A stretch of 64,000 nt of DNA from an uncultured virus (IMG/VR IMGVR_UViG_3300008108_000264) (lineage: Duplodnaviria > Heunggongvirae > Uroviricota > Caudoviricetes). Position numbers and translations under genes: made by a program. Shown piece after piece: positions 10,801-56,270 of the stretch (position 1 is the first letter of the stretch; every line of letters starts with the position of its first letter). The notes beneath the pieces were generated by a model, which worked only from the letters and a program-made list of their open reading frames with translations, was not told the origin of the DNA and searched no databases. Location of the stretch: IMG/VR virus record IMGVR_UViG_3300008108_000264; one strand, 5' to 3'.

Positions 10801-13800
10801 ATTCATTAGCAGATGAAGGTACTGAAGAAGATGTTGATGAAGATGCTGACTTAGATAAACAAATACAAGCATTAGAAGAAGAAAAAGCAGAAGCATTGTA
10901 TCCAACAGAACAACCTGCTTATTTTCCTGATAATAAACCTTGGAATCAAACTCTTGAAGGACTTTATCAATATTTACAAAATCTTAAACAAGAAGCAGGT
11001 AATCCTGGTGCAGGAGCAAAATTAGTTATAGATTTTGGAAACGTTGGGGAATTGGAGTTTAGTTTATTAACTATTTCTTTTCCTGTTAATAACAGATATG
11101 TTACAATAGAAAATGGAAAATATAAAATAGAATCTGATAATAATACACAAGTAGAATTTGGAGAAGAAATGTCTCCAACTGAAGGTATATGGTATAAACC
11201 TAAACCTGCATCTAATCATAATTCAATAGTTGAGTTTTATGATAACAATGAATTTTCAATAATTTTAGATGAAAAAGTTATTGGTAGAATTTTAAATATG
11301 GACCCAGGTATACTGATGTTCCCTATTATAAATGATGAAACAGGAGAAAGAATAGATAACCAAAATCCAAGTGAAATTATAAGAAAAATTAAAAGTGGAG
11401 AGTATGTAGTTATACCTGGTAGATATGAAAAAACAAGTGATGGTAAAAATAAACTTGTAGAAAAAATAAAAATTGTTAAGAAACAAGAAGGTCAAGAACA
11501 AGTTAAAACTAAATCTATTGAAGAACAAAAAGCTGAGATAGAAAGAAGAAAAAAACTATCTGGATGGATTGCATCTTATGAATTAGCAAAAATTGCAAAA
11601 GAAGAAGGTGTTGATTTATCTAAATTATCTAGAGAAGAATATGCAGAATATGCTATTAAAAACTATTTAAAAATAGATGATACTCAACTTAGAACTAATC
11701 CAAAACATAGAAATGCTACAACTGTACAAGAAGTTGGAGATATTATAAAAGCAGATAGAGCTTCTTTAACAGAAGAAACTAAAAAAGCATTTGATTCATT
11801 TTATAGAGCAATGATGGCTATTGTTAATAAGCCTCAAGCAGAAAGATATTTAGCTCAAAGTGTAAGATTATATTCAGGTACTAAAGATTCTGATTCTTGG
11901 TTATATTTTGGCATAAATAATGGAACAAATACTAATGAAAATTTTACACATAAAAGTTATTTTTCATTAAAAGATCTTAATGATTTTTCTCCAGAAATGT
12001 TTAAAGACTTTATGATTGAACTTCAAAAAAGAGGTTATAATGGTGATGTTAAAATATTTCAAGATTTAGAAGTTCAAGGTCCATCATTAAGTGATCAAGT
12101 TGTAATGCATGGATATTCAGAAGCAGATGCTAAACTAGCATTAGAAGTAGCTAAAGAATTTTATGGAGATAAAATATTAGAATCATCGTATGGTAAAGAT
12201 GAAATTATAAATGGTAAAAGTAAATCTTATAGTCAAATACTTTCTGATAAAATTAAAAATGAAATTGATTCTAAAAATGTTGATGAAGAATTAGCTGCAT
12301 TAGAATCTCAATCTGAAGTAGATCAAGAATATCAAGACTTTATTAATGGTATTATTACTGGTGAACGTATTAAATCAATAGGTGAAAAACTTGCTACTAA
12401 TAGAACTAACGAATTAACTGATTTTGAAAATCAGATATTAAAAGATGAAAAAGGAAAACAATTAATAGATGAATATTTAGCAAAAAGAAAACAAGCTGAA
12501 GATAAAAAAGAAAAGAAAAGTGAATATACCGCAAAAGAGTTTATACAAAAATATTTAAATTATGAATTTAAAGATGATAGTGGTAAAACATATAAATTAG
12601 AATTCTTAGATAAGTATTTAGATTTTCTTAAATTAGCAGATGCTAATAATACTATCATTAGAGTAATTAACGATAAAAATCAACAAGGTAAAATCTTTGC
12701 TCAAGGTAATGTTATTACTATTAATGTTTATCATTTTAATGATCAATCTCAAAAACTTATTATTGATGATAAAATATTAAGTGAATTATTTGTACATGAA
12801 ACTATACATACATTTATTGGATCAAGTTTAAAAACTAATAATGCATTCTTTAATGAGATGAAAGGTTTTGTTTTAAGTATGGGTAATTCTAATGACTTAA
12901 CAGAAGCTCTTGATGGTATTGCTGATAATATTAAAGCTCAAATTAGACAAGTTAATAAATTAGAAGATAGTCCAGAAAAAGTAAAAAAACTTAATATTTT
13001 AAAACGTGCATTAGAATCTATAAACTATTCTAAAAACACTATTCTTGATAAACTAAAAGAATATGAAAAAGATAAAGTTAAAATTTCTCCTGAGGCTGCT
13101 CTTAAAAACGCAGAGGCTTTAGGTCTAGAAGAGTTTATTGTTTTAGCTTTATCTGAACCTGAGTTTGCATTTTATTTGAATACAGTGCCATCTGATAAAG
13201 CTACAGAGGATGGTCCTAGTATGTCTATGTGGCAAGTACTTAAAAAGATATTATTTAAAATACTTGATGCTGTATTAAATAATAAAAGTAGATTAGCAGA
13301 ATTAAATAATATGCTTGATAGACATTTAGCTAAAACAGCTAAAGGTTTAGATTTAATTAATATTCAAGAATATTTTGATTTAGGATACATACTTGATAAA
13401 GGTATATATACAATTAATATTGGTACAGAGGTTAGAGATATTGTAATTCTTGATATGGAAGGTGATAATATTATATATACTTTTCCTAATGTATTAAGTG
13501 ATCCAAGAATAAAATATACAATGTCTAAAGAAGAGTTTTATAATAGTGATCCTGTATTAAATGAAAACTTTAGATTTGAAGAATTTATAAATCAATTAAA
13601 TAATTTAGAACTTACACCTGATAACTTTCAAAAAGAATTTCAAAGATTAAAAGATCAAGTATTATATGATCATCTATCTATAGATACTAAATCTAAAATT
13701 GATGAAATACTTGATAGTATACAAGAGCAAATTGAAGCTGATATTAAAGATGATAGATTAGATAATTTTGCTGATCAAATTGAAAAGAAAAAGTTAATAT

Positions 13801-17102: not shown

Positions 17103-20100
17103 TTAAAACGTTCTATTTAAATTCTTTGTCATTTCATCTAAGTTAGTTGCACTAGTAATATTACCAAATAGTTTTAAACCTTTAGCATATAATTTGCTAT
17201 CACCTTTTTTAAATATACCTTGCTCTTTTTCATATACTGCAAAAGGATCAGCAACTTGTGATAGAAAACTATAAGCTCTATCTACAGTACCATTAAATGC
17301 AGTTGGACTTTTAAAAAGCTTCCAGTTATCACCAAAGAAACTAGGTACAGGAGCTAATGAACCAATTTCTTTTCTAAGTCTAGTAAGTTCATATAAAGCT
17401 AAAGCTCTAAATGCTGATACATCTTCATCATCTTCATCATCACCTATAGCTAATACAGCAACTAATAATCCTAATAATAAATAAATACCTAATTCCATAG
17501 TTGCTCTTCTAACGTTAGCTTCTTCAAATGGTTGTAAACCTGTATCTTGTTTAGTACCACGGAAACTATTCATAAACATTGTACTTAATTTTTTCCAATC
17601 AGTAAATAAGTAACTAAAAAATGTTATATAATAACCTTGTCTAATAACACCTACTTCTTCATTTCTATAAAGTTTACCCCATCTTCTTCTAGCCATAGGT
17701 ACTAAGAACTTTCTATACATCATAAGTAATCTACCAAATACATTTCTTTGTATGTGAGTTTTATCAAATGTAGCATAGTTACCTTGAAGATCTTTATTAA
17801 TACCATGAAGTTTAGCTCTAATCTGCATATTCTTTTTACTTCTTAAAAAAGGAACACCATCTATATCTTTTATACCTTTTGCTATAACTTTACCATCAGC
17901 ATCAAGTTCCATAGATGTTAATAAAGTATCTTTAATTTTATTAAATTCTACTTTTGCTTTTTTCTTTTCATCATAAGTAAGTTCAGATCCTTTATCATTA
18001 GTTTTCTTTTGCATGTAATCTTCTATGCTATATACTTCACCATTAATAACTTTATAACTATTAAGTAAAGCATACATTGATGTAGCAGCAGCTTCAATTT
18101 CACCTATGTTATTATTAATAAACCAAGTACTTGATCTTAATGCTAAATTAAGTTTTGATGCAGTTAAATCATTACCATATTCATCTTGGAATGTACCTTG
18201 TAAAGCATCATACATATCAAACAATTGACCTGATAAAGTTTCTCTTGATATCTTACCAAAATCTTTTACCATATCCATAGTAAGTGATCCTATCTTATTA
18301 CTACCATAATATACTAATTTTTTAGCATAACCCCAATCTTTAAGATTATAATGATCAGCGGCCCAACCTTCTAAGAATATTTGTGTATTAGCTTGTAAGT
18401 AGTTAGCAAAACCTTTAATCCAACCAGTAGATGTAATACCACCTATTTGAGCATACGATGCTGCAGTCATAAGACCATCTAATAACTTATCTACTCTTAC
18501 AGGCCCTACTACAGGAATGTTATAATTGATTTCATTATTCTGATCATCAAAGAATTGCATTTCAGTAAATGATCTAAGTAATGCACCTTCATAAGTTTCA
18601 CCTTCTTTGCGTACAAACTTTTCTATACCTAGTTTTTTAGCAACAGCATCGATCATTTTATTACCTTGTGCATCTCTTTCTATAGCACCACCTTCAGTTG
18701 ATTTATCTCTTTTATTAATTAAATTTAAGATAGCTCTCATTTGAGGTAATATTTCACTCTTAGCTTTAAATCTTTCTGCTTGTTGTATATAAGATAATAT
18801 AGAGCTTACAACGTCTCTACTGACATTTTCTATATCAATGTGATATACATGTCTAAACGGAAGAGATCTATTCTCTAATGATGTACTATAAGTTGCAGTA
18901 CCTTCAATTAGTTGATCTTCATCTAAATCTATATCTTCACCAGATGTAGATAAATGTCTCATTATATTATCATTTTCTATTTCTCTAGTAGCTTTATTTC
19001 CAAATTTAGTTTGCCACCAAGATCCAACTCTTTGTTTAAATTTACCTTCTATTAATTCTTCTCTACCACTCTTATAAATATACGGTAATCTGTTACCTAA
19101 TCTGTAAGCAGCAGGCATTTCTGCTTGTGCTTCTTTGTACTTTTTCATAATAACATTATAAAACTCTTTCCATTTAGGATCAAGTTGTTCATATTTAGAG
19201 TTTACCCATAAATGTTTTTTAGGTAACATATATCCTAATTGATCTGTGACTTTATCAAGATCAGTTCTAATATATTCTTCTTTTATCTCTGGTGATTTAT
19301 ATAAATAATTAGGAAGTAATTTTACACCTTCAGTTAAAGTTTCATCAATTAATAAATATCCTGATTCTTTTTTTATTTCTTTATCTTCTTTGTGATTTTT
19401 TAAAAACCATTCTGTTTTTTCTAATTCAGCATTAAGAGCTTTATCGTTATAATTAGGATAGATTTGTTTAATCTTTTCTAATTCATTTTTTCTATCTATT
19501 TTGTAACGTTCAGAAATTTTATTAGTTTTATAAGTAGGTACTGTAGTCATCCATGCTCTAATAGGACTATAAATAATTTCACCTTCTTTAGTATATTCAA
19601 CATGATTATTTATATACCATTCAGATTCTTCAAAAAGTATACCATTACTTTCAGCCTTAGCTTGTTCTAATTCATATCTTTTATAATATTCTGAATTAGG
19701 AACATATTCAACTATTTGATCAATAGCTTCATCAATACCATTTTTTATTTGAAAGAATAAATTCCAAGATGGATCTTCTTGTCTTTGTTCACGTGTTACT
19801 TTATTAAGTAAGAATAGTTCATTTAATTCTTCTTCTAATTCTTTTAATCGAGCAATTACATCATTAGGTATAACTTTAGTATCAACGTGAGTACCACCAA
19901 GTCTATATGGTTTTAATAAATCATTTATTTCTTCATTAATTTCATACTCATCATTTTTAGTATTATTTAATTCATATTCTTCAAACCATGAATCTATTTT
20001 ATTAGTAAATGTTTTAAAATTAATTACCTCATCACTTAATAACTTAATTTCATCCATTAAATCATAATCATCATTATTCTTTGCATACTTAAGAACTTTT

Positions 20101-23100
20101 TTAAGTTTTCTTAAATATTTAACTTTATCAAATAATGAGTCATCTATTTTAACTTCAGTATTTTCTTCTAACCATAATAAATATTTATCTGGTTCTGTTT
20201 CAAATTTAAGTTTAGCTCTTCTTCTTTCATCTTCAAATCTTTCATAATTAACAACAAAACGATGTCTCTTATTATATTCTGTATTAAATTCTTGAATTCT
20301 AATTGCAATTTTTAAATCGTCATCTTCTTTTTTAATACCATCTTTATCATATATAGAACCTAATAATTTATATTCAATATCTAATTCTCTTAAAGCTGCT
20401 AAGTCATCATCACTAAGTTCAATAGATCTATGCTTAACTCTATCTTTAATATTATCCATCATACTAATAATACGATCACGTTCTGCTTTAGCTTTTATAC
20501 CAATTTCATCTTTAGTAAATAAATCATCCATTTTATAATAATCATCAATATTAGGACGTTCCATATTTTTATTTACCCAAGCTTTGTATTCTTTGTCAAC
20601 TTTTCTAAATTCATCAAACTTTCCAGCTTCTTTAAGTTTTCTCATTCTATATTGATAATGCTTAATGATATTAGTATAAGTCATTTCGTCTTCAACAGTT
20701 TTACCATCATCATTTACATAAGTAAATTTCTTTCTACCATATTCACTTACAAGATTTACTGTTTCAGCTAATATTAATTTACCTGTAACTGGATCTCTTA
20801 CCCATTCTTTTACAGTTTCAAGTATAGGATCATAAAACTTTTGAGGGTTATCACCTTGATTAGGTAAAAAGTTAAACGCACTTTGATCAAATACAGCAGA
20901 TGATAATTTCTTTGCTGCTTGTTGTATTTCAAGTGCAATATCTTTCATATTCCATTCTGCTTCAGTAAGATGGAATTTTAACATCATAGCATAAGAAGAT
21001 AATATACCACTACTAGTACTAATAGGAGCAGTAAGAAATCTTTCAATAAAACCAATATCTCTATTAAGTTGTTTAAAATCTCTAACTAATGTACCAGCAT
21101 CTCTAACTAATGTATCTTTAAACCTCTCCATGTTCTTTTTATACCTATCTTTGTAATACTTTAATTGAGTTTTAAATTTATCATTACTAGGATTTTCTTT
21201 AATCTTTTTTTCTAAGTCTTTTATTTTCTGCTCATATTGAATTTGCTTACCTTTAATAAAATCATCTACAGATTTATTTAAATTTTCATTTAAATACATC
21301 TCAAGATTATTACCAAGTAATCTTTCCATTTCATATTGATAACGTACATCAAGAAGTTTTTTCTTAATTTCTATAGCTGTCTCTAACTCTTTAAATGAAT
21401 CCATTTTCTTAATTTCATTTAAATCTTTATCAGATGTTCCTTCTAATAAAGCATTCATTATTTCATCAAGAATATTATAATTCTCAGCTATTCTTCTTAT
21501 ATCTTCTATATCTCTAATAGCTTCACTAGATCCTATGTCTCCTTGATTATAACTATTAATAACTAATTCAAACTTATCATTAAGCCCTAACATATTTTCA
21601 GTACCATATAATTCAAGATAAGATGCATGTATAAAAGTATTTAAACTTCGTATTTTATCTAAATCTGATATGTCAGTTTTAAGTTTATTAATTTCAGTTT
21701 TTTGTTTATCTTGTTTTTTAGGATCTTTGTCTATAGATCTATTAATATCAGTTAATCTTTTTTCTAAATAAATTTTAATATCATCAATTAATTTATTTAT
21801 TCTTTGTTGTTTATTATCTAATAAAAGATCTACGTTAGCAAAATCTTCTTTTTCTTTTTTAACTTTTTCATCACCAAACTTTGGATTATACTTAGATCTC
21901 ATTCTTTCAAATGCTATTCTTTTAGCTTTATTATATACAAGAGCACCTTGATTACCAAATGGAGTATTATAAAATGTTTTAATATTAATGCTGTAAGTCT
22001 TTTTAATTTTACCGTTTTCATCTAATGATGCTTCTATAGTTATTTTACCAGATGGTTGTTCATTTATTTTATAATCATTTACTTCTGATATTTCAAAGTG
22101 ACCATCAATATATACTTCATTAACAATCTCACCTTTATCATTTTCATAACTATTTAAACCTACTTCAGGTACAGTAATAGGAATTAAGAATAAATCTTTA
22201 ACTTCAAATCCTAATTCTTCTTCAAGTATTCTTTGATATAACATTAACTGTAAAGAATAACCTGCTTGTTTTTTTGAATTTAAACCAAATGTAAAATCTC
22301 TAACTATTTCATAATAAGGAGCTGCAGGTTTAGGTTCATAATGCATAGTTTTAAAGTCATAAATTTCTACTTTACCTCTATATTCAGGGTCTACTGATTC
22401 ATCATCTTCATAAATAACTAACATGTCTATTTGACCTGCTACGCTTACTTGTCTACTACCATCATTTATATCTAACATTTTATCAGTATGAACAAGTACT
22501 TCAGTAAGTATTCTACCTCCTCTTTCTTCAATCTGATTTTTCATTGAAACTATCTTATTATAAAAGTCTAAACTAGCATATAATCTATCAAGTTTCTTTT
22601 GATCTTCAGATAAAACAATAGCATCTTGTTTTTTTACTTTAGGTCTATCATTAAATCTAGGTAATAAATTATCTTTACCAATTTTAGTTTCTAAATTGTT
22701 AATATCTTTTTCTAATTTTTTAATATCATTATTAACATCTATTGGATCTTTCTTTAATATCTTTTCAATAAGTGAATGTACTTCAGTTCCTACTTCTCTT
22801 CTTACTTCTGAATTATATAAAACTTTAGTTAACTTATAAAATAATTCTTTATCAAAAGGTTCTTCTTGAACAAGATTACCAAAAGCATCTTGAAAAGTAA
22901 AATTATCTGTTTCATTTTCTTCTCTATAAAAATTAAATCTATTATTTAATACAGCTGTAATAAAATCTTTTTTAGCAAGTTCAGTTAATGAATCAAACCA
23001 ATCTTTACTTCTTTTATTACTTTGTATAATATATTTTATTAAATTCTCATCATCAAAATCTAAAAGATTATGTTGTCTAACTATACCAGTAATTGAATGA

Positions 23101-26100
23101 TCAAAATTTAAACCATTCTCTTTAATGTAATCATGTTTTCTTTGTGTAAGTTCAGCATGAATTGTTTTACCATCAGGAGAACTATCAAACTTTACTTTAG
23201 ATGCTCTATTCAATACTTTCTTTTCCATCTCTCCTGCTTCTTTTGTAACCTTACCAAACTTAATAACATTTTCATTATTAAAATCTGTTGCTGTACTTAA
23301 TATATCAAGAGATCTCTTATCAGCATTAGCAAGTGCTTGAGATACAATAGGATCTAAAAATAATAATAGATTTTTATTCTTTACATTTTGAATTTGATTT
23401 AAATGTTCAAATGCAATATTTTCATAATCTATAGAATCTAATTTAGTTTTACTTTTTATAAATTTATAGTTATCAATAATATCTTTATTACCATAATTCT
23501 CCATCATAGTACCTAGCATATTATTGTTTCTAAGCAACCCTGAAGCTAATGTAATTAAAGGTACTACTTTAGTATCACCTGTAATCATAGATGGATTGTA
23601 GCTTAAAATACCGTTATTTAAAGACCATTCTTTATTAAGATTATAATCTTTTTTAAATTGAACTTTACTTTTAGATGATATATCATTCATAACATTTAAA
23701 GCAAATTCAATAGGTGAGTTATTTAACTTAATAGGTTTATTTATTAAAGGTATTTTTACTACATCAGGATTAAGTACATGTGTTTCTGTATCAGACATAA
23801 CTACATCATAACCAGCAGCTTTAGCTTTAGATATCTCAACAGGATTGACTTTATCAACCTTTTTAACTTTATTAGTTGCAATAAAGAATGGTTCAGTATT
23901 ACCAGATACTTCATCTTTAAATACTAATGATTCCCTTGGTAGTTCATCTTCTTCATCATCAATAAAATCTCTAACTTTTTGAATGCTAAAATTATCTTCA
24001 GTTTTTAATAATTCTTTAAGATCAGTTTTAGTAACTTCAGGTAGATTTGATTCATTTACTCTCTTAGTTAAATCTTCTACAGATTCTGTTTGAGTAAGTT
24101 TACCTTTCTTAACATCTTCTGCTAATATAGCTTTAACTAAATTTAAATTATTAACTATACCGTTATTTGCAAATTCTAATATTCCTGTTTTAAGTAAGTC
24201 AAATAAATTATTAATTACTTCAGGATCTTCATCATAGTTTTGTAAATTAGTTAATAGAACTTTAGAATCTTCAAGATTTTCTATTGTACGTTCCACATTT
24301 GAAATATAATCATAAGCTTGTTCTAATATTTGAATTTTATCATAACCATCATTATAAGTATCTTTAATAATTTTAATATTTTCTTCTGCTTCTTTTAATG
24401 TTATTTTATCATTATTTATTTCTTTATCTATATGAGTATTTAATTCTTCTATAGATATATTTTCAAAATCATTTAAATAATATAAAGATTGATCTACTAA
24501 TCCACTAATACCATTATCAAATTCATTAGGTGTTAATTTACCAAACTTAATAGTACTTAAATCTCTTTCAGGTGTAATTTCTACTTCATTCCATGTATTA
24601 CCATGCTCATCTGTAATTACTACAGGATTATATCCTTGTTTTTTAAGGATATTAGTTACAGTATTCTCATAGAAATTTATAGTACCTTGTATTTGTTTTT
24701 CTGTATTATCATAATGAGATTTATCTTTTTTTAATCTATATAAATCTTGTTGTCTTGCTTTATCAAAAGTTTCATCATTCTCAATTGCATCGTTAGGATA
24801 AAATGATTCAAGTACTCTCTGATAATCAACATAACCTTCTTGATCATTACCAATATATTGAGCTTGACCACTAACGTCTTTTATAAAATCTGTTACTTTT
24901 AAATCAATTAAAAACTTTTCAACTTTATTAAACTCATTCATTTTATAGAAAATTTCTTTAAATTGCTCTATAACAATTATAGTTTCACCAGTAGGAAATA
25001 AAACTTTTTTATATCCTTTCTTAGCACTATCTTGAAGTATAGATTTTAAAAAGAATGTAACCCAATTATTGTTTTTGTTTAATAATTGAAGAAAGTTATT
25101 TTGAGAATCTTTCTTATAGTTATATAAAGTATCTTTTGGTATGATTACTAAAAAGTCATCATCCCAATCAGGTTGTTGATAATAATTAGTATCATCTTCA
25201 TATAAAACACCATGATTGTGTTCAAAAGGTCTATCTTTAACGTAAGTTATATATTCTAATGCTAAACTTTCATCAAATAAAGGATCATCTATTTTAACAG
25301 TTTCTTTATAATCATTTAAATCTATTACAAATTTTCCATTAGAATTTATCTTATTGTTTGTAACAATAATTTCTTTATCTTTAACTTTTTGAAAAAAAGA
25401 CTGAAGTTCTAAAATACGACGAACTTGTTTATTAGAATCTTTATCATCATTACGAAACCAACCAATCATGTCACCTCTTGATCTATTAAATTCATTATCA
25501 TGATATTCTCCATCTTGAGAAATAACATTATTAATACTTGGTGTTCTAAATGTATTAATTTTATAATCAATTCCACCAGGTGCTGTTAAATTAGAATAAT
25601 CCTTTGTAATTTGTTGTTCATTATTTTCTTCAAATATATTTCTAGCATTAGTAAACTCTTGAGAATTAATTGGTATAAGTTTACCAGTATTATTTTGCCA
25701 ATCTTCAAATGATATTTTATAAAAGCCTTTATTAAAACTTATATTATGTATATACATGTAATCATTTAATTTAAATGTAACATTACCAGATTTTATTGGC
25801 GATGCTGTACTACTAGTATTAACCTCTACAGTATACGTATATCTATTAACTAACTCCATTGCAATATTTTCTTGCAATGATAATTCATCAACATAATTAT
25901 TAAACTCTAAATCTAATATTAACTTTTTCTGTTCTTTAGGAATCTGTAACTCAGTTAATATTTTATCTAAAGTCCAATTATTCTTTTCACCTTTTTTAAA
26001 TACTTCATTAGCTTTATCTGATAACAATATATCAGTAGCTTTTAAAGAGTAAGCTACTTCAGGTGTATTTAAAGACTCAGAAGTTAACTTACCAAACTTT

Positions 26101-29048
26101 TGAGGTTGATCTTCTACAAAGTTTTTAAATCCTTTTATATCTTGTTCGGAACCTAATATATGAATTTGTTCTGGTTCAAATACTACAATTTGATTTTCCC
26201 CTACATCATAAGTTCTATTATTAGATTGCTTACCTCCTTTTAATAATAAACCATCTGCGTTTTCTTTTAAACTTGTAGAATTTTCATAGTTATCAAACCA
26301 ATCTTTTACTGTTAGATTTTTTGGATTTTTTATATTAATAACTGCATGTTGAACTACGCCTTTGTTATTTTCAATATTCTTTTTTATTTTTTCTGCTTCT
26401 CTTTCAATTTGTTCGTCAGAAGCACCCATATCTTTATAATAAGCTATTTCTTTTTTTATCTGCTCTATTGAAGGATTTAAACCGTGTTTTTTTATAACAT
26501 TTCTTATATTACCATCATCAAATTCATCTTCTGTATATTTAACGGTATAGATATTAGCAGCATTTTTATCATCTGTAAAAAATATACCTAACTCTTTACT
26601 TTTTTGATTAGTTTGAATACCTGTATTACCTCTATAAACAATACCTTTAACTTTACTATCAGGAAATATAGTATCAAGATATTGAGAGTATTGTTGTTGA
26701 GCTTCTTGTTTATTACTATCAAATGATGATTTTTTAGTATCAAAATTTTCTAAATTATTTAAAGTGTCATTGATAACATCTTCAAGTAAAGTATTCTTTG
26801 CTTCAATTCCTATAAGATTTCTTATTAAATTTAAAATGTCATCCCATAATGTTTTACCTTTAGATTTATCAGATGGAATATCTTTTAAAATATCTCTAAA
26901 TAAAGGTTCTGTAAAAACAGCAGCTAAAAATTCATCATTATCAGAAGTTTCATAACTCCAATCAAAAGAATATATTTTATTATTAAATTCTTTAGATTTT
27001 TCTATTTTTTTAATAACTTTTTCTCTATAAGAATTAATTAAATTATAAAAATTTTTATCTCCAAATTCACTTTTTGCTAATGTATTTCTTGTTAAAGCAT
27101 GAATTGATTCATGTAATAAAGTTCTTGTTTTTTCATTAAAATTTTGATTAGGAGAAACAATTATTCTATTAAAATATTCATTATACGTACCAATAACACC
27201 TGATTTTATTTCTTTATAATATACTTTAGTTGGATAATTTTTTAATTTATTTTTAATTAAATTAGCAAGTTCTTTATATTTATAATAAAATTCACTTGAT
27301 TCATTTTTTTCTAATTCTTCATTAGACATTTGTAAAATTTTATCAAGCTCATCATTTAATAATGTATATTTATCATCTTTTGTAATTTTAATATCTTCTT
27401 CAATATTTAAAATTTTATACACAGTATTAGCTAACTCAAGATTAGATTCAAATAGTTCTGGTACACCTTCTTTTATTTGAGTTAATTTACCTTTCTTAAT
27501 ATCTTCTTCATTAAAAGGTATAAATCTATTATAATCCCAAATATCTTTAAATCTACTATATCTTAATTTAGCTTCAAATGGAGCTTCAAATTTAGATAAA
27601 CTAACATTATATTTATTACCATCACTACCAACAAAAGGATATTTTATAATACCTCTTTCAGATTCATCATTACTAAAGAAGTCAACTAACATTGCTTCTT
27701 CACCTTCTTTATCTTCGTCTTCATTTATAGTTTTACCAGTATCAGATATATCAAATTTTAATTTATAACTACCTTTTTTTTCATTAGTTTCATTATCAAC
27801 AACAGTATAACCTATAATCTTACCTGTTTCTCTTCTTTCAATATTAGTAATTCTAAATCCTGCAGGTGGAATTAAATAAGTATCTACTTGATATTTATCA
27901 AAAAATGAATATGCTTTTATAGAATCAGGATAATAATATTTAACTAAATCATCTATTTCTGCTTGTGAATAACCACCATTAACAAAATCTAAATCATGAA
28001 CAACAGTTTCTATTTTTCTATATACTGTACCTTGTGTAGAGTATGCTATTGATCCTGTTAATGTAATGTTAGGTATAGTACCTATCTTAGTCATTATATC
28101 TTTAGCAATAGAATTTTCATCAAATGCTGTTTGAAAATCTACTTGTTTATATCCATCTTTTTTAGTTAATCTAATAAAGTCATTACCTTTAAATGTATTT
28201 TCTACTATAGTATTTATTTGAGTTTTAATCTTACTATAGTCTGCACCTTTTAAAGAGTTAATAAGATTATTAATAAACTCTTTAATTCTATCAAGTAAAG
28301 ACTTTGATACATTTAATTCTTCAGCTAATTTCTCTGAAAAACCACTTTCTAATAATTCTTTAAATATTTCTTTTGTAGCAAGTCTATTTAAATTTCTTTT
28401 AGTAGAATCTCCATATTCTTCTTCTAGTTCTTTTACTCTTTTTTTAAATCTATCCGTTTTTCTTACTTCTCTTTCTATATCATAGAAGTAATCAGAATAA
28501 CTTAACATTTCTGATAATGGTTCTGCCATTGCTTTAGATACTTGTTCTACACTTGATGTATCTAAACTTATACTTTTAGCTGCAAGATTTATTATTAAAT
28601 TTTCAGATTCGTTTACTTCAAATCCAAACGATTGTAAAAAGTTTAATAACTTAGCTTGAGGTTCATTTTCATCTAAAGTTAATTTACCAAACTTTTTATT
28701 ATTATCAATTGACCTTTTAATTTTATCATCATTAATAAAACTATCTAATGCAGTTTTAAATGGTTTAACACTATTAGCATCTTGTAGATACATTAACTTA
28801 GGTTCAAAATTGTTATCTACAAAAGGAGATACTTTAGAATAAGATGCTCGTGCAGCATTATATTCAAATGAATCTTTAGTATAAAGTTTTAATTCTTTAG
28901 ATGCACTTTCCCAGTTTCCAAATTCATTTGAAAATTCAGGAGTTCTTACTTTATACCATATTTCTTTTGCTTTTCGTTCTCCATATAAAGATTTAAGTTC
29001 TTCATATAAATTACTTGTTTGCCCGTTAGGAGCATAAAAACATGCCAT
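17103..29048 (-). CDS. Giant polyvalent virion protein (3981 aa): nucleotidyltransferase-like, zincin, ART-like and PD-(D/E)XK nuclease domains, C-terminal TM segment
   Basis: LTGSIA...HDLDF; LLHESIH...EFLA; VYRG...GIFFT...INIKNP...QIVVFEPEQI; GTEVH...AGQIDML...IYDFKT...QLMLY; LGIYLLLGLLVAVLAI. Confidence 0.8.
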   Translation of the reverse strand: MACFYAPNGQTSNLYEELKSLYGERKAKEIWYKVRTPEFSNEFGNWESASKELKLYTKDSFEYNAARASYSKVSPFVDNNFEPKLMYLQDANSVKPFKTALDSFINDDKIKRSIDNNKKFGKLTLDENEPQAKLLNFLQSFGFEVNESENLIINLAAKSISLDTSSVEQVSKAMAEPLSEMLSYSDYFYDIEREVRKTDRFKKRVKELEEEYGDSTKRNLNRLATKEIFKELLESGFSEKLAEELNVSKSLLDRIKEFINNLINSLKGADYSKIKTQINTIVENTFKGNDFIRLTKKDGYKQVDFQTAFDENSIAKDIMTKIGTIPNITLTGSIAYSTQGTVYRKIETVVHDLDFVNGGYSQAEIDDLVKYYYPDSIKAYSFFDKYQVDTYLIPPAGFRITNIERRETGKIIGYTVVDNETNEKKGSYKLKFDISDTGKTINEDEDKEGEEAMLVDFFSNDESERGIIKYPFVGSDGNKYNVSLSKFEAPFEAKLRYSRFKDIWDYNRFIPFNEEDIKKGKLTQIKEGVPELFESNLELANTVYKILNIEEDIKITKDDKYTLLNDELDKILQMSNEELEKNESSEFYYKYKELANLIKNKLKNYPTKVYYKEIKSGVIGTYNEYFNRIIVSPNQNFNEKTRTLLHESIHALTRNTLAKSEFGDKNFYNLINSYREKVIKKIEKSKEFNNKIYSFDWSYETSDNDEFLAAVFTEPLFRDILKDIPSDKSKGKTLWDDILNLIRNLIGIEAKNTLLEDVINDTLNNLENFDTKKSSFDSNKQEAQQQYSQYLDTIFPDSKVKGIVYRGNTGIQTNQKSKELGIFFTDDKNAANIYTVKYTEDEFDDGNIRNVIKKHGLNPSIEQIKKEIAYYKDMGASDEQIEREAEKIKKNIENNKGVVQHAVINIKNPKNLTVKDWFDNYENSTSLKENADGLLLKGGKQSNNRTYDVGENQIVVFEPEQIHILGSEQDIKGFKNFVEDQPQKFGKLTSESLNTPEVAYSLKATDILLSDKANEVFKKGEKNNWTLDKILTELQIPKEQKKLILDLEFNNYVDELSLQENIAMELVNRYTYTVEVNTSSTASPIKSGNVTFKLNDYMYIHNISFNKGFYKISFEDWQNNTGKLIPINSQEFTNARNIFEENNEQQITKDYSNLTAPGGIDYKINTFRTPSINNVISQDGEYHDNEFNRSRGDMIGWFRNDDKDSNKQVRRILELQSFFQKVKDKEIIVTNNKINSNGKFVIDLNDYKETVKIDDPLFDESLALEYITYVKDRPFEHNHGVLYEDDTNYYQQPDWDDDFLVIIPKDTLYNYKKDSQNNFLQLLNKNNNWVTFFLKSILQDSAKKGYKKVLFPTGETIIVIEQFKEIFYKMNEFNKVEKFLIDLKVTDFIKDVSGQAQYIGNDQEGYVDYQRVLESFYPNDAIENDETFDKARQQDLYRLKKDKSHYDNTEKQIQGTINFYENTVTNILKKQGYNPVVITDEHGNTWNEVEITPERDLSTIKFGKLTPNEFDNGISGLVDQSLYYLNDFENISIEELNTHIDKEINNDKITLKEAEENIKIIKDTYNDGYDKIQILEQAYDYISNVERTIENLEDSKVLLTNLQNYDEDPEVINNLFDLLKTGILEFANNGIVNNLNLVKAILAEDVKKGKLTQTESVEDLTKRVNESNLPEVTKTDLKELLKTEDNFSIQKVRDFIDDEEDELPRESLVFKDEVSGNTEPFFIATNKVKKVDKVNPVEISKAKAAGYDVVMSDTETHVLNPDVVKIPLINKPIKLNNSPIEFALNVMNDISSKSKVQFKKDYNLNKEWSLNNGILSYNPSMITGDTKVVPLITLASGLLRNNNMLGTMMENYGNKDIIDNYKFIKSKTKLDSIDYENIAFEHLNQIQNVKNKNLLLFLDPIVSQALANADKRSLDILSTATDFNNENVIKFGKVTKEAGEMEKKVLNRASKVKFDSSPDGKTIHAELTQRKHDYIKENGLNFDHSITGIVRQHNLLDFDDENLIKYIIQSNKRSKDWFDSLTELAKKDFITAVLNNRFNFYREENETDNFTFQDAFGNLVQEEPFDKELFYKLTKVLYNSEVRREVGTEVHSLIEKILKKDPIDVNNDIKKLEKDINNLETKIGKDNLLPRFNDRPKVKKQDAIVLSEDQKKLDRLYASLDFYNKIVSMKNQIEERGGRILTEVLVHTDKMLDINDGSRQVSVAGQIDMLVIYEDDESVDPEYRGKVEIYDFKTMHYEPKPAAPYYEIVRDFTFGLNSKKQAGYSLQLMLYQRILEEELGFEVKDLFLIPITVPEVGLNSYENDKGEIVNEVYIDGHFEISEVNDYKINEQPSGKITIEASLDENGKIKKTYSINIKTFYNTPFGNQGALVYNKAKRIAFERMRSKYNPKFGDEKVKKEKEDFANVDLLLDNKQQRINKLIDDIKIYLEKRLTDINRSIDKDPKKQDKQKTEINKLKTDISDLDKIRSLNTFIHASYLELYGTENMLGLNDKFELVINSYNQGDIGSSEAIRDIEDIRRIAENYNILDEIMNALLEGTSDKDLNEIKKMDSFKELETAIEIKKKLLDVRYQYEMERLLGNNLEMYLNENLNKSVDDFIKGKQIQYEQKIKDLEKKIKENPSNDKFKTQLKYYKDRYKKNMERFKDTLVRDAGTLVRDFKQLNRDIGFIERFLTAPISTSSGILSSYAMMLKFHLTEAEWNMKDIALEIQQAAKKLSSAVFDQSAFNFLPNQGDNPQKFYDPILETVKEWVRDPVTGKLILAETVNLVSEYGRKKFTYVNDDGKTVEDEMTYTNIIKHYQYRMRKLKEAGKFDEFRKVDKEYKAWVNKNMERPNIDDYYKMDDLFTKDEIGIKAKAERDRIISMMDNIKDRVKHRSIELSDDDLAALRELDIEYKLLGSIYDKDGIKKEDDDLKIAIRIQEFNTEYNKRHRFVVNYERFEDERRRAKLKFETEPDKYLLWLEENTEVKIDDSLFDKVKYLRKLKKVLKYAKNNDDYDLMDEIKLLSDEVINFKTFTNKIDSWFEEYELNNTKNDEYEINEEINDLLKPYRLGGTHVDTKVIPNDVIARLKELEEELNELFLLNKVTREQRQEDPSWNLFFQIKNGIDEAIDQIVEYVPNSEYYKRYELEQAKAESNGILFEESEWYINNHVEYTKEGEIIYSPIRAWMTTVPTYKTNKISERYKIDRKNELEKIKQIYPNYNDKALNAELEKTEWFLKNHKEDKEIKKESGYLLIDETLTEGVKLLPNYLYKSPEIKEEYIRTDLDKVTDQLGYMLPKKHLWVNSKYEQLDPKWKEFYNVIMKKYKEAQAEMPAAYRLGNRLPYIYKSGREELIEGKFKQRVGSWWQTKFGNKATREIENDNIMRHLSTSGEDIDLDEDQLIEGTATYSTSLENRSLPFRHVYHIDIENVSRDVVSSILSYIQQAERFKAKSEILPQMRAILNLINKRDKSTEGGAIERDAQGNKMIDAVAKKLGIEKFVRKEGETYEGALLRSFTEMQFFDDQNNEINYNIPVVGPVRVDKLLDGLMTAASYAQIGGITSTGWIKGFANYLQANTQIFLEGWAADHYNLKDWGYAKKLVYYGSNKIGSLTMDMVKDFGKISRETLSGQLFDMYDALQGTFQDEYGNDLTASKLNLALRSSTWFINNNIGEIEAAATSMYALLNSYKVINGEVYSIEDYMQKKTNDKGSELTYDEKKKAKVEFNKIKDTLLTSMELDADGKVIAKGIKDIDGVPFLRSKKNMQIRAKLHGINKDLQGNYATFDKTHIQRNVFGRLLMMYRKFLVPMARRRWGKLYRNEEVGVIRQGYYITFFSYLFTDWKKLSTMFMNSFRGTKQDTGLQPFEEANVRRATMELGIYLLLGLLVAVLAIGDDEDDEDVSAFRALALYELTRLRKEIGSLAPVPSFFGDNWKLFKSPTAFNGTVDRAYSFLSQVADPFAVYEKEQGIFKKGDSKLYAKGLKLFGNITSATNLDEMTKNLNRTF

Positions 29049-29128: not shown

Positions 29129-32100
29129 TTATTTGCAATCTTTATTCACTTGACCATCTGTTTCTAAGTCTTTTTCAAAGTTACTTAAGGAATATTCAGT
29201 GTAATTTACTACATTAGTTGCAGTTAAATTGTTAAATCTTTCATATAGTTCTTTTAAAATAACACCTTCACCAGATATATTATACTCATTGTTAGCTCTA
29301 ACTAAATTATTCATAAGTAATGTTCCATTTGCATTAAGTATTTCAATAGCTTTATTAATAATCTTCTTCTTAACATCCTCTGACATTGTGTTGTTAGCTG
29401 GTACAGCAACAAATATTTGTGATGAAGAATCAGCAATTATATTATCATTAGTAGCTATACCTTGATTAGAAGCACTTCTTAGATAATCATTAACTTTAGA
29501 TTTTATAGATTTAACATCAGTATACCCAATAAATCCATTAGCATTTAAAGCTTTATTTTTATTATATCCAAACTCATCATTTATAACAAATCCAAATTTA
29601 TTATCTGTAATTGTTTGATTTGTATCTCTTGCATATTGATCTATATTAGGAATGTATTCAAAATCGACATCATATTTATCTTTTATTGAATCCATATTTA
29701 ACATCATATAACTAATATCCCATCCTTGTTTTTTACTCCAATTTCTAGCATATTCAGATTTTTGCAGATCTTTTATTTTTAAATTATTTGGATCGTATTT
29801 TAAACCTAGTTTAGCATAATCTTCAGATAGTAATTCATTAACACTCTTATCAGAAATATTAGTAATTTTAACATAAATAGGAGCTCTACCTTTACTTGTT
29901 ATTTTTACAATTTCACCAACTGACATATCAGATATATCTGCAAATTTTCTTGATGTTTGAGTTCTTAAAAATGAAATAATAGCATCGTAAGTAGTTTTAA
30001 TATTCTGACTTACTAAATCATCTCTCATAGGACTCATACTTAAACCATTTCTATCTGGTTCTATATGTTTCATATTATGAGGTAAGGTTTTTGTAATTCT
30101 TGTTTTCTTAACTATATTTTGTAAATCAGATTCAGTTTTATCACTTAAAACAGTACGAGATCTAATATACATATCTGATTCTGCTTTAATCTTATCAGCA
30201 TTTTGTAAAATATATGTATAAAGTTTTTTTCCATCTTCACTCTTAGTTAATAATGAAGGTAGAACATCAATTGTACCTTTTGATAATATATCATCTGGTT
30301 TTACAAGATAACCTAATTTTCTTAAATCATTTGTAATTTTAGTTACAGTAAAATAAACAGATAAATTTTGAGATAGGCCTACAGATTGTAGTTCATTAGT
30401 TAATGCAGATTTAATATAACTGGTATAATCAGAGTTATCATTTTTTGATTTAATTATCATAACTTTATTATATACATTAGGTATATTATTAACTATAAAG
30501 AAATTCTTAAGATCTTGAATTTGTTCATCCATATTACCTTTAGTATCTATAACAAATAAACCTTTTTGTGCATTAGTAACTTTATCAGCAACTTCTTCTA
30601 CATTATTATTAACAACTATATTAATAGAAGCTTGTGTTTCAGAACTTCCATTATCAAATACTACAACAATATTAGGAGATTTTTCCATATATAGTTTTGC
30701 AACTTTTGGTATAAAACCTTCAGTATTTACTTCATCTACTATTTGTAAACCATGTAATTTTAAATTAGATAAATTATCACTAAATACAGTAATTACTTCT
30801 TTAACACCATAATTAGGTCTGTTTCTATTTTCTAATACTTTTGAAACTTCTTTTTCATAGTAAGGTTGTATCTGATATATCTGAGTAGATTTACCTTTAA
30901 ATGGTAAGTATTCGTCAGATGTTCTATCATAACCTAACCAATTATTCATATCATTATTATATTCAGAAATAAAAGGTGATAATTCACTTTTAATATTTTT
31001 CTTATCTAAACCTAATTGTGAAACTATATCATATGGAGTTGTTACACCTTTACTTGTAACTTTATATACAACATTATTAATTGTAATTAAAGCTGTCTCA
31101 CCTATCTTTAGATCAAGTTTAGATAACACATCTTTATTAGTTACTGGTTTAATAAGAACATTTTCATTTTTTAAATGATTCTTATCTGAGTCAGATAACA
31201 AATTAACTGATAATGTACTATCATTAATTAACTTATATCTTTCGTTTCCAAACATACGTTTAGATAATAACTTTTCTTCAGACTTACTAAATGAATTAGT
31301 AGTATCTCCATCCTTCTTAAAATCTTCAACAACTTTTAAAAGAGAACCCCCAGGAAGCTGAGGATTCTCTGTCATTTCTAAATTATAAGCAAATGAATCT
31401 TTAGATTCAGCAAATACTTCTCCAATTTGTGTTAAACTGTCAAGTTGTATATCTGCTTTTACTCCATCTTTATTTAGTAATTGAGACAAAGGTGCAATTA
31501 CTTTTTTCTGCATCTCAACAAGACGTAACATTAAATGTTTATATTCTTGTGGTGTATATAAATAATTATAAATAGAAGTATGAATATTATCTACTTTTAC
31601 ATAGACAGCTTTTCTACCTTTATATTTATATTTATTTTTTTCTTCTAATTCATCTAAAGTAACTTTATCTTTAACATCAGAAGGCATACCATCAAAAGAT
31701 ACTAATACAAATGTTTCATATTCAATCTTTCTTTTTTCATATGCTATCTGTTCTTCTTCAGTCATATTATCAAAATCAGGTCTAGGTGGTTGTTTTTCCA
31801 TTACAAAGAATAAAGGAAACTCTAACCCTATAACAAGTCCATTTTTATCATATACACCATTAAATGGAGTATTTTTAACTATTGGATTTATTACACTTGT
31901 AAGTTCTGATTTAACTTTTTTTGCAACTTCAGTGTTACTGATATTTTTTTCTTTACTTAATATATTATTAAATTCATTTTTATTAGAATACCCAATGAGT
32001 TTTCTAATACTTTTTTGCTCTTGTGAATCAAGAAATTTTTCAAATATTTCGTAAAGATTTTTATTATCTATTTGATCTAATAACCCACTTTTATATATAG

Positions 32101-35100: not shown

Positions 35101-38100
35101 ATTTACTGAAGTCATCATTATTAGGTTGTTGTTCTTCTAAGTAATCAGTATACTCTTTAGAACTTGATAATTCCCATTCTTGTTTTGATAGTTTACTTAA
35201 CTCATCATGTTCTTCTTTACTAAATCTTTTAAATATATTATTTGCATCACTAATAAATCTTGTACTTTCATTATCAGGTAATGAATTTAATTCGAAATCA
35301 ATGTTAACATTTAATAAATTAACAGTTTCTAAATCTGATTTAAAACCTATATATTCATTTCTAAGTTTTTCATCTTCTTGTTTTAGAAGTTTAATTTCTT
35401 TACCTATTTCATCAGCTTCATTCCTAATAGTTTCTAATTCAGTTCTAAGCTCTTTTACAAGCTTATCATTTTCATAAAATACATTTACACCTTTATATTG
35501 TTCTCCAATAAGTATAGCTTTAGCTTCTTCTAAATCAAATCTAACATTTGAATTGTCTTTAGCTATATGCTTAATATACTCTTCAAATAAATGCATATTA
35601 AGTATTTCATCATCGGATATTTCAGGAAGATTATTAGGATTATACATAGATCTTAATTCTTTAATAGTATATTCTCCATATACATGGAAATTAGTGTTAC
35701 CTTTATCATCAGTAGTAGTATAAAAATCTTTAAGTAATGTATACTTAGAGTCAATGTCAAAGTCCTCACCGGAGAATACCACTGTCTCTAAAGGTAATAC
35801 TGCAACGTCACCTAATGCAAGAGGAAGAAAATCGACTACTTTAAAAGAAATCATTGAACGTTTATCCTCAGTAGGAATACGAGTAGCAAACATTTGAAGT
35901 ATAGAATCTATAGCTTTTTTGTTTGTTTTATGTCTTCTGTAATCCTCTTCAGTAAGCTTATCACTAATAGCTTTAAACTCTTCTAAAGTTTTATAATCAA
36001 TTATGTCATTAGACTTTAGATTAAATATTTCTTTAGACCATGCTGGCATCATTACTTCAGAAACACTTGCTTGTTTAACAGTAGATAATAAAGATCTAAG
36101 TTTAGCATAATTAACTGTTACATTAGGATCAGTTTCTTCTAATTCTGTATAAGGACTAAATATATTTGTTAATATATATTCAACATCAGATTTAAATTCA
36201 TCAGATAACTTTTCAGTATTTGTACCTTCTCCACCTTCTCTATTTCCAGCAATGTTAATAGTTCCATGTGGTACTTTAGAAAGTAACTCTCTTAATTCTT
36301 CATCAGTATTAAAATCTTTTCCATATAAGAAGAAAGGTTTTCCATGTTTTTCTGCAAATTTTCTAGTAGATATTAAACCTGCTGAATCTTTAGCACCTTC
36401 TGAAAAATAAATAGTAACATCAGAATTAATTACATTTTGTTCTGTACGAGCATTATAATAACTAGATCCTTTTTTAGATTTAGGATTTTCAGCATCATAT
36501 CTATTTTGTAATTCATCTGATATTGCTACTACACCAAGTTCTTCAGCTAATTTTTTATTAGCGCCTTTACCTTTTTCATTACCAAAATCAGATGTAGTTG
36601 TACCACCTATTTCTAAACCTCCTATTTCTTTAGCTAAAAGAAGACCAAGAGTATCAATACCAGTTTGTAAACCAGATATTACTTTATTAACACGAACTTT
36701 ATACTTTTCTTTAATAGGTTTTTTTGTTCTAGAATCTATTAATAAAGATGTTTTAAGTCTAATGTATTCTCTAAGTAATTCATTATTACGTGATAAAAAA
36801 ACTAACATGTTATTATCAAATACTTCATCAGTAACTTTTTTATCATTAAGTTCATTTATAATTAAGTTAAATAAGTCAGAAGATACATCATCTTGAGTTA
36901 TTAATTTATCACCTATTCTAAATCCTTGTAATTGATCTGATTCACTCCATCTAAGTCTTCTAGTCTTATATTCTTTTTTAAGACTCCATTTACCTGTATC
37001 TTTATTTTTCTCATAATACTTTTCAGGATTCTCATCAATAGATAATCTTGTAATTACATTATCATTTTGATCAACAATAACTTCATTACCATAATCAGAT
37101 ATTAATGATACTTTTCTACCTGGTACTACTTGTTGTAATACATTCTTAGAGAAATGTGCTAAAAATTGCTGTTCAAACTTTTCAGCAATAGCAGGAATAT
37201 TAAAGTTATATTTACTTGATTTTCCATCAACACTAAATTCTCTAAAGAAGTCAAGTAAGACTTCATCTGATCCACTATTTAATAGTACTTGTTTAATCTT
37301 CTTTTGAAAATTAACCATATCTCTTTGAAACTTACCATCTCCATCAAAGTAACCTAATACAGAAATAGCATGTTCAACAGAGTTTCTTACTCTATCTGTT
37401 AAAGCTTGACGATACTTTTTAACTACATCACTAATCTCATAAACTTCTCCTCTAATAGCAGCCAGTCTACTTTTATCTTGTTCATTATCAATGATCTGTA
37501 AAAGTTGTGACATAAATGTAATCTTAGTTTTACCAGAAGGAGTTTCTACTTGTAGTCTCCAAAATTCATTTTTACGTTTAGATGTATTATAAGAAAAATC
37601 ATGATAGCCATTAACATCAGTAGCAACAACAGGAGTAATAAGTTTAGATGCAGATTTAGGTAGTACTTCATCAATACTATTTAATTGCATATTTACTCTC
37701 ATGTTATGTAATACTTTGTGATTATCTCTAGGTTCCCATAATGTTTCATATTCATCCCATAATCTTTTTACTTTATCTTTAACATCAGAATTATTTTTTC
37801 TAAATCCAACAGAAGCTTCTAATTCTTTAATCTTAGATTTAAGTTCATTAGCTTTAGCTTGATTTTCTTTTGGTAACCATGATGTTAGTTCTCTTATTAA
37901 TATAGCATAAGAAAGTTTATGATATATTTCTCCATCAAAATAAACACCCTTAACAGAATTAAATGTAGCATTTAAACTATCAAGTTTTTTTAATTCGTCC
38001 CAAGTTAGTTTTTCACCAAACCTAATCTTATCAATTATAGGTTTAATGGAATCTCCTAGTTTACCATTTCTCTTTAAAATAAAAATAAATCTATCAGTAC

Positions 38101-55532: not shown

Positions 55533-55564
55533 CATTTGTTTCTGACATTTCTATCAGGTTCGGA

Positions 55565-56242: not shown

Positions 56243-56270
56243 AACTAATTATTTAATTGCTTACAATAAG

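Follow-up and report, generated by a model that had tools for sequence, protein, structure and literature searches.

Giant phage proteins built as chains of unrelated enzyme domains have been described as polyvalent proteins, and their processing by a zincin-like peptidase was proposed by Iyer, Burroughs, Anand, de Souza and Aravind (2017; PMC5512222); the accessible part of that paper names no junction or cleavage peptide, and the word "linker" has 0 occurrences in its text. For crAss-like phages, the preprint of Drobysheva et al. (10.1101/2020.03.07.982082) states in its available sections that the fused "huge polyprotein" "is likely cleaved", and reports a zincin-like domain in gp65 of phage phi14:2. 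Full-text searches of main articles found no paper naming a junction or cleavage motif of such giant proteins. Here we analyse a 64,000-nucleotide stretch of an uncultured Caudoviricetes virus (IMG/VR record IMGVR_UViG_3300008108_000264; the whole stretch is referred to below as the window), where a six-residue peptide, K-x-G-K-[L/V]-T, is found six times in one giant protein, P1, and once in another, P2, and marks the seams of exchangeable cassettes.

P1 and P2, with their putative enzyme domains, resemble the polyvalent proteins which, as far as the accessible text of PMC5512222 goes, combine unrelated enzyme domains in giant chains (zincin-like MPTase, ART-PolyVal, PD-(D/E)XK nuclease and SLOG), likewise have mosaic architectures among relatives and were proposed to be delivered into the host with DNA. 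Unlike the polyvalent proteins as described there, P1 and P2 have a defined six-residue joint at the seams, and this joint varies between lineages. The domain matches are mostly below the Pfam cut-offs in our case, while the zincin HExxH hub is present in both P1 and P2. The locus can also be compared to the block of phi14:2 gp65-67 and PhicrAss001 gp47, gp49 and gp50, where, according to the available parts of the published descriptions, giant genes likewise lie beside a DFDxD protein (P3 with its DFDID in the window). The gp49-type protein of 1349 amino acids (aa) from this RNA polymerase (RNAP) block is homologous to the C-terminal third of P1, but P1 has about 1900 extra N-terminal residues of swappable cassettes. 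P1 and P2 are best explained as probable "polyvalent" cargo proteins that a freshwater crAss-like phage packages into its virions, each of them combining a conserved ejection-protein body with a string of exchangeable enzyme cassettes.

A six-residue joint at the seams of exchangeable cassettes

Three giant genes of the window are relevant here (ORF, open reading frame):

P2: 7806-17045, plus strand, giant protein of 3079 aa, convergent with P1 (ORF list)
P1: 17103-29048, minus strand, giant protein of 3981 aa (ORF list and translation)
P3: 29129-38668, minus strand, 3179 aa, neighbour of P1, similar to crAss-type virion RNA polymerases

The copies of the joint are located as follows:

Motif 1, KFGKLT: 28677-28694, minus strand, P1 aa 119-124, between the N-terminal domain and cassette c1
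Motif 2, KKGKLT: 27480-27497, minus strand, P1 aa 518-523, between c1 and the zincin+ART cassette c2
Motif 3, KFGKLT: 26082-26099, minus strand, P1 aa 984-989, separating c2 from the widely conserved module c3
Motif 4, KFGKLT: 24531-24548, minus strand, P1 aa 1501-1506, at the end of c3
Motif 5, KKGKLT: 24093-24110, minus strand, P1 aa 1647-1652, between c4 and c5
Motif 6, KFGKVT: 23244-23261, minus strand, P1 aa 1930-1935, preceding the C-terminal body with its PD-(D/E)XK-like region
Motif 7, KLGKLT: 16965-16982, plus strand, P2 aa 3054-3059, 20 residues before the end of the protein and 16 before its only Cys

All seven copies had been listed by an earlier sequence-only reading of this DNA. 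A six-frame scan of the window recovered each of them at these positions and found no further copy of K-x-G-K-[LVIM]-T. The peptide is real and non-random. Its strict form, K-[F/K]-G-K-[L/V]-T, is expected 0.0026 times per shuffle of P1, and six copies were reached in 0 of 5000 shuffles; GKLT is the commonest 4-mer of P1 (5 copies). For the single P2 copy, at least one match was obtained in 10 of 5000 shuffles. At the DNA level, AAGWWWGGTAARNTWAC with no more than one mismatch has 7 matches compared to a mean of 0.25, and 7 were reached in 0 of 100 shuffles. The full joint peptide can be written as [D/E]-[D/E]-h-K-x-G-K-[L/V]-T.

An unbiased scan was performed for 67 giant proteins, grouping 6-mers that differ at no more than one position (Hamming distance) into families and setting aside four proteins dominated by Ser/Gly/Thr repeats. 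Six copies were found in P1, six in its relative P0004 and four in another relative, P0005, the shuffle maximum being 3 for each of them. P0006, L021 and L022, with 4 copies vs. a shuffle maximum of 3, are borderline, and 33 proteins have fewer than 3 copies. No clear copy of the motif was found in P3. KKTRIT, which follows Asn-Ile-Val at P3 aa 2854-2859 (30092-30109, minus strand), is a possible degenerate eighth copy similar to KFTRMT of P0004; the chance expectation of this relaxed pattern in P3 is estimated at about 0.06, and it may be a coincidence.

The joints divide P1 into seven parts:

c0: P1 aa 1-118, minus strand, N-terminal domain
c1: P1 aa 119-517, minus strand, no Pfam match
c2: P1 aa 518-983 (26100-27497), minus strand, zincin-like domain followed by an ART-PolyVal-like domain
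c3: P1 aa 984-1500 (24549-26099), minus strand, uncharacterised, common to many giant phage proteins
c4: P1 aa 1501-1646, minus strand
c5: P1 aa 1647-1929, minus strand
c6: P1 aa 1930-3981, minus strand, PD-(D/E)XK-like region and C-terminal body

The suggestion that the peptide is a module-junction signal is strongly supported by the way homology blocks start and stop at these positions. Out of 52 BLAST block ends, 35 are located within 10 residues of a motif, compared to 7.4% expected; these ends are not independent, as the two c3 borders are common to many relatives. For five of the six P1 motifs, one or more breakpoints were found at the motif. Cassette c1 matches L003 (P1 aa 113-511), L004 (133-511) and L005 (134-538), its location being different in each of the three. 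The ART homology of c2 stops at aa 983 in P0007, P0009, P0010 and P0015 and at aa 980 in P0008, and some 15 relatives have c3 blocks that begin around aa 984-997 and end around aa 1491-1514. Cassette c4 (aa 1501-1646) matches P0004 aa 525-687, i.e., a different position in that protein, and colinear homology resumes at P1 aa 1646 (P0004) and 1644 (P0005), which corresponds to motif 5. Motif 6 has no homology breakpoint among protein relatives; one loose contig end at 23262 was seen in run X15.

P1, P0004 and P0005 differ in the presence and order of their cassettes, i.e., have a mosaic architecture. P0004 has two motif-bounded cassettes more than P0005, each ending in KEGRMT. A direct exchange was found when contigs of four runs were aligned to window positions 23000-29048. 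In run X10, a contig of 68,397 bases differs from the window at 100 positions over 23664-26096 and at 26 positions over 27477-29048, which corresponds to 95.9% and 98.3% identity on the two sides of the swap. Between them, 537 in-frame bases (179 codons) replace positions 26097-27476 of the window (1380 bases, cassette c2). The variant keeps P1 through motif 2 and one more codon, and resumes at the second codon of motif 3 (26096). The swap, as read from this assembled contig, therefore means that the whole zincin+ART cassette has been exchanged, no more than one codon away from each motif, in a 96-98% identical phage. Short contigs of more distant organisms (80% likeness), which skip about 370, 450 and 732 bases within c2 and c3, were set aside. 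Another contig of X10, of low depth (4.8), has 28729 joined to 28693 with 8 other letters in between; this joint is in-frame, 9 codons shorter and ends at the first base of motif 1.

A similar situation is found in the P2 family. P0044, which belongs to the 90% cluster of P2, and P0024, which is 96% identical to P2, differ in the cassette upstream of an internal joint, SKKSGKLT; in both, this joint leads to a cassette starting with "..FGEE.SPTEGIWYK". No related genes split at a motif were found.

The joint could serve recombination only, being a neutral flexible in-frame connector which is never cut and where cassettes are swapped via the short coding sequence or through in-frame selection. 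Both the replacement of c2 next to motifs 2 and 3 in such a similar strain and the tying of two different upstream cassettes to the same downstream one by SKKSGKLT fit this explanation, while 18 bases are very short for a homology-driven exchange. We consider an uncut linker possible, if rather unlikely.

The motifs had also been placed at boundaries of recognisable domains. The boundaries hold as ends of homology blocks, but the domain names are less certain, as none of the Pfam matches reaches its gathering cut-off: DUF6782 metallopeptidase (E 0.004, 16.9 bits, cut-off 27) and ART-PolyVal (E 0.012, 16.8 bits, cut-off 31.2) in c2, and PDDEXK_1 of the PD-(D/E)XK type (E 4.6e-4, 20.7 bits, cut-off 22) in c6. 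The NTase label comes only from a G-S...D-L-D pattern recognised by eye. Whole P1 gave 0 Pfam families; PF18760 is present in its relative P0015 according to precomputed annotation. Module c3 is 30-87% identical to P0004-P0023 and 19 locus ORFs, has no match in Pfam or PDB and matches only unnamed viral clusters in the protein Atlas. Searches of PDB sequences with c1, c2, c3 and a c1 profile returned nothing below E 0.09, and c1 had no usable match in the protein Atlas. P2 variants P0024 and P0026 possess at aa ~1010-1290 a cassette with "..ADGMGG..", resembling PP2C-type phosphatases by eye only and absent from the P2 of the window.

Lineage-specific versions of the joint

The only close relatives of P1 found, P0004 (4296 aa) and P0005 (3938 aa), are 58-59% identical to it over the C-terminal body and contain K-x-[G/T]-R-M-T at six and four seams, respectively. 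Four of these seams are orthologous to P1 joints 3, 4, 5 and 6 and have KEGRMT, KLGRMT, KFGRMT and KFTRMT, in this order. The peptide is kept, in these R-M versions, at orthologous junctions of the homologues. A three-way alignment of joints 3-5 shows K, G and T to be invariant, while positions 4-5 change from K-L to R-M. Among P2 orthologues, the C-terminal copy is KLGKLT or KFGKLT in P0024, P0025 and P0029, KLGKMT in P0026 and P0030 (about 50% identical to P2) and KQGRMT in the fragment P0035; it always precedes the ...G-C-P-K tail.

The versions are not mixed within a protein: P1 has five K-L joints and one K-V, all joints of P0004 (6/6) and P0005 (4/4) are R-M, and P0024 and P0025 have two K-L joints each. 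The c4/d1 cassette family has the local version in each lineage. Judging by these alignments, the joint differs in step between lineages (K-L, K-M and R-M). The use of one shared version for P1-type and P2-type proteins of one genome is known from this phage alone. In search of DNA with the R-M and K-M versions, P0004, P0005 and P0026 were compared to viral contigs and P0004 also to genome contigs, and no relatives were found in either. A metagenome scan with c3 patterns gave relatives at 23-42% identity only and one 57-residue fragment at 67%; with the P2-orthologue alignment, only relatives at 26-31% identity were found among viral contigs.

One version per protein is what copy-and-paste of resident joints would produce, as expected for an uncut linker. 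However, the invariance of K, G and T across 54-59% identical orthologues is unexpected for a neutral linker, the P2 copy is kept about 20 residues from the C-terminus down to 50% identity although no cassette is exchanged there, and the joint change between K-L and R-M at all seams needs an extra explanation. The presence of the same peptide in two proteins of one phage suggests a shared reader acting in trans, and we infer that a shared factor reads the peptide, most simply a protease.

On our preferred reading, a protease encoded by the phage would recognise the peptide and cut there; the likeliest candidate is the conserved zincin-like domain of P2, which may act after packaging of the full-length chains or after their ejection into the host. 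Each cassette would thereby become an effector of its own, P2 would lose its Cys-bearing C-terminal tail, and the peptide may double as an in-frame seam for swapping cassettes between phages. This explanation is tentative: we give cutting of the joint peptide in packaged or ejected chains slightly less than an even chance.

The shared reader does not have to be specifically a protease. The same peptide, present in two cargo proteins and changing in step, could be a non-proteolytic handle for some partner from the phage or the host (e.g., a chaperone, a factor that unfolds or threads the chain, or a site on the portal or inside the capsid) that organises packaging or stepwise ejection. According to the available part of the PhicrAss001 structural paper (PMC10172136), crAss cargo protein gp45 binds the portal and the tail barrel via short segments, and the P2 copy, lying beside the conserved Cys tail, could be part of an anchor. 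Nevertheless, it is not obvious why a handle should be placed at every exchangeable seam, the P3 polymerase, which also has to be packaged and ejected, is devoid of a clear copy, and no partner was identified in the window. We find a handle of this kind distinctly improbable.

The flanks of c3 were also compared in other lineages. For this, 27 non-redundant proteins with c3 and both its flanks were selected, and the best 6-mer match between the flanks of each protein was compared to a cross-protein flank control. The own-flank match exceeds the 99th percentile of the control in 5 proteins out of 27 (P1, P0004, P0005, P0017 and L021) and the 95th percentile in 8. A private peptide is present on both c3 flanks in P0017 (DSLDIP twice) and L021 (LDNFD[ED] twice). 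P0019, missed by the anchors, has ISFDIS on both flanks and ISFSIN nearby. In P0015, P0016, P0018, P0020, L006, L007, L017 and others, c3 is directly followed by I-L-[LF]-Q-[KRT], found as ILLQ[KRT] or ILFQK at the place of motif 4. In alignments its counterpart in P1 is I-K-F-G-K-L, and it may represent an older version of the joint; [IV]-L-N-Q-Q is found before c3 in P0015 and P0018.

Synonymous codon variation within the motif had been taken for a sign of protein-level selection, which agrees with most of the motif but less with its first codon. Codons 4-6 vary synonymously (AAA/AAG, TTA/CTT/CTA, ACT/ACA), and codons 3-6 of the seven copies match the background usage of the giant genes, pointing therefore to a constraint on the peptide and not on DNA. 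The P2 copy (AAA TTA ... CTA) differs from the P1 copies in its Lys and Leu codons, including AAA for the first Lys. DNA identity is thus not maintained, which argues against an uncut recombination joint. To judge by codon usage, the motif is under protein-level constraint. The first Lys, in contrast, is encoded by AAG in all six P1 copies (e.g., 28692-28694 and 26097-26099), while AAG accounts for 15% of all Lys codons and for 22-26% of those followed by A or T; multiplication gives roughly 2e-4 for six out of six. This hints at a nucleotide-level constraint or at common descent of the joints, and descent from a single DNA joint would fit the uncut linker.

A translation- or RNA-level signal, with the AAG-led sequence pausing the ribosome at seams for co-translational folding or marking RNA processing and the peptide being secondary, would explain the AAG preference, which stands out against codons of the same next-base context too, but is very improbable, as the other codons are background-like, the P2 copy uses AAA, relatives keep the peptide with non-synonymous changes in step, the motif occurs in one frame of the coding strand only and no consistent start codon follows it. 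Two more candidates were rejected: a Walker A motif (P-loop), since the G-K-L-T spacing does not fit GK[ST], and cis-autoproteolysis at x-Thr, because the unrelated flanking sequences cannot supply a common strained fold.

Zincin-like domains as candidate proteases

The proposed cutting of the joint peptide by a phage-encoded protease directs attention to the two zincin-like domains of the window:

HESIH of c2: 27099-27113, minus strand, P1 aa 646-650, with a conserved Glu at aa 706
HETIH of the P2 zincin-like domain: 12795-12809, plus strand, P2 aa 1664, signature spanning aa 1664-1781, candidate processing protease

These domains are paralogous and have an intact HExxH as well as the downstream (D/E)EF...P.F element. 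The HExxH...(D/E)EF signature is present in 16 collected giant proteins, with H, E, H and E invariant in a six-sequence alignment (A4); the P2 zincin is kept in P0024, P0025, P0026 and P0031. The zincin family profile has two PDB matches in which both HExxH and (D/E)EF are aligned: 8vb2, "tetrameric ejection protein (gp48)", with E 1e-4, and 9sfn, "internal virion protein", with E 1.2e-3. The zincin-like domain is therefore a common part of ejected phage proteins.

The sequence-only reading counted zincin domains of both giant proteins as possible cutters. For P1 this is doubtful: its zincin was swapped out together with c2 in the X10 variant, and neither P0004 nor P0005 has it, so it cannot be essential. 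The P2 zincin sits in the conserved part of P2. No prohead protease was found by Pfam and PHROGs searches among the other ORFs of the 64-kb window, which is part of a contig of about 127 kb. The conserved zincin of P2 remains a candidate protease. Thermolysin-type zincins prefer a hydrophobic P1' residue, and the hydrophobic residue at position 5 of the joint (L, M or V) would suit such a preference.

Several points weigh against proteolysis at the joint. The peptide is known here from sequence, the cut sites are predicted, and the precise cassette swaps are equally expected from a pure recombination joint, to which the AAG preference and the dispensable P1 zincin can be added. HExxH zincin-like domains are common in ejected phage proteins without a demonstrated protease role. 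The virion RNA polymerase (vRNAP) of phage N4 contains a subdomain with HExxH, yet the available part of the source (PMC13434306) describes this polymerase as full-length and does not mention proteolysis; it is packaged unprocessed according to PMC5512222, in its accessible text. The PhicrAss001 structural paper, in its available part, does not mention cleavage or a protease either (PMC10172136); the lack of reported cleavage for N4 vRNAP and PhicrAss001 cargo proteins would be natural if the joint were an uncut linker.

Not every seam has the peptide. At the joint shared by P0044 and P0024, the P2 of the window has a third upstream cassette and no motif, the SLOG insertion of P3 is not accompanied by a motif, and c1-bearing relatives at 43-54% identity lack a recognisable joint peptide. 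Structural data add little: AlphaFold2 models of P1 aa 940-1700 (18-row alignment, mean pLDDT 45.7) and aa 440-800 (6-row alignment, mean pLDDT 45.2) have the motifs in low-confidence coil and are too poor to serve as evidence for exposed linkers, and the hydrophobicity of motif flanks is only marginally low (0.283 vs. 0.34 protein-wide in P1, P 0.065; P 0.058 in P0004).

Genomic context and comparable delivered proteins

The window is AT-rich, with G+C of 23-32%. According to public run labels, the runs containing this stretch are lake, river and other freshwater metagenomes, some being labelled as fungus metagenome; no RNA runs are among the public runs listed for it. Downstream of the three giant genes in the window are a 1285-aa gene and a replication module.

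P1 is composed of the 118-aa N-terminal domain, five motif-bounded cassettes and a conserved C-terminal body of 2052 aa, and P2 includes the conserved zincin and a variable central region (aa ~1000-1520). P1 aa ~3272-3952 are similar to the 1349-aa "RNA-polymerase subunit" of the gp49 type (23% identity, E 2e-21), with matches in 58 records (Kehishuvirus and 57 others, Crassvirales). Gene order and the convergent arrangement around P1 are the same as in Kehishuvirus-type records, where the 1349-aa gene adjoins the polymerase gene. The first 2000 residues of P1, including the ~1900 N-terminal cassette residues, have no match in the phage collection. P2 aa 1-2000 also have no match there, so the equivalence of P2 to gp47/gp65 is drawn from gene order only. 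The DFDxD catalytic motif is present in the adjacent giant protein P3 as DFDID (aa 969-973; 35750-35764, minus strand). Weak similarity to the surrounding region, with E from 2e-6 to 2e-7, was detected in 54 phage records; the matches listed are from crAss-like phages, several of them annotated as "putative RNA polymerase". A cpYpsA SLOG domain was found at P3 aa 663-814 (E 7e-12, above the Pfam cut-off). In PhicrAss001, gp47, gp49 and gp50 were detected in virions by mass spectrometry, according to the available part of PMC10172136.

Each of the giant proteins has a single Cys, which is terminal: Cys3 in P1 (29040-29042, minus strand), aa 3076 in P2 (17031-17033, plus strand; fourth residue from the end) and aa 3178 in P3 (29135-29137, minus strand; second from the end). 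Among 28 full-length giant relatives, whose mean Cys content is 0.04%, 19 have Cys in the first 6 residues, 11 in the last 10 residues and one in neither. A hydrophobic helix followed by an acidic run (LLLGLLVAVLAIGDDEDDED) is located near the P1 C-terminus at aa ~3855-3876 (17421-17486, minus strand), is recognisable by eye in P1-type relatives and would fit a membrane-inserting ejection protein. The DNA polymerase of the replication module is apparently split (54746-57524, minus strand): ORFs 56487-57524 and 54746-55393 match the N- and C-terminal parts of phrog_1252, and a GIY-YIG homing-endonuclease ORF (55688-56242) sits between them. The same module includes a radical-SAM protein similar to spore photoproduct lyase (PF20903, E 4e-25; 58053-59003, minus strand).

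Delivered proteins of other systems share some of these features. In MARTX toxins of Vibrio, effector domains are released by a built-in cysteine protease, which is activated by inositol hexakisphosphate and cuts after Leu. One long delivered chain, variable modules exchanged between strains and short inter-domain sites are the common traits, while cleavage is predicted for P1 and P2, the candidate here is a zincin instead of a cysteine protease, and delivery here is from a phage capsid. A short peptide also stands at the border of recombining toxin cassettes in CdiA ("VENN") and Rhs ("PxxxxDPxGL"); in Rhs and Tc-type proteins the junction peptide is an autoproteolytic site as well. The conserved peptide at the border of swappable cassettes (as in the X10 swap and at the SKKSGKLT joint) is the likeness here. 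CdiA and Rhs proteins have a single C-terminal toxin accompanied by an immunity gene, whereas there are up to six internal joints here, with six in P1. No small gene follows P1 or P2, which are convergent, and the C-terminal body of P1 is its conserved part, so a layout with an immunity gene is not observed. The peptide is family-wide in those proteins but differs between close lineages in ours.

Capsid cargo is trimmed by the head-maturation protease in T4, where gp21 cuts the internal proteins and Alt, and in phiKZ-like phages, where inner-body proteins are processed; the motifs of prohead proteases are hydrophobic-x-Glu or S/A/G-x-Glu. P1 and P2 are comparable to these proteins in their short recurring motif and in their presumed packaging into the capsid and delivery with DNA. 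A dedicated prohead protease is used there, however, and ours is a basic motif centred on Gly.

For the giant virion proteins of crAss-like and related phages, cutting by their own zincin has long been suspected, with no site named in the literature found. The six-residue joint provides exact candidate substrates that can be synthesised, with its lineage versions and the natural cassette swap as natural controls, and therefore makes the cleavage question directly testable. It also delimits the individual cargo cassettes, mostly uncharacterised, so that each can be expressed as a unit and screened against host defences. We speculate further that there may be a private cleavage code, each lineage pairing its own peptide (GKLT, GKMT, GRMT; DSLDIP, LDNFD, ISFDIS) with a co-evolving built-in zincin: the injected thread-like polyprotein would be cut in the host into a changeable arsenal, and the peptide would double as a universal socket for cassette trading. 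This broader proposal is doubtful, but if true, such phages would possess a counterpart of MARTX toxins combined with a cassette-exchange system.

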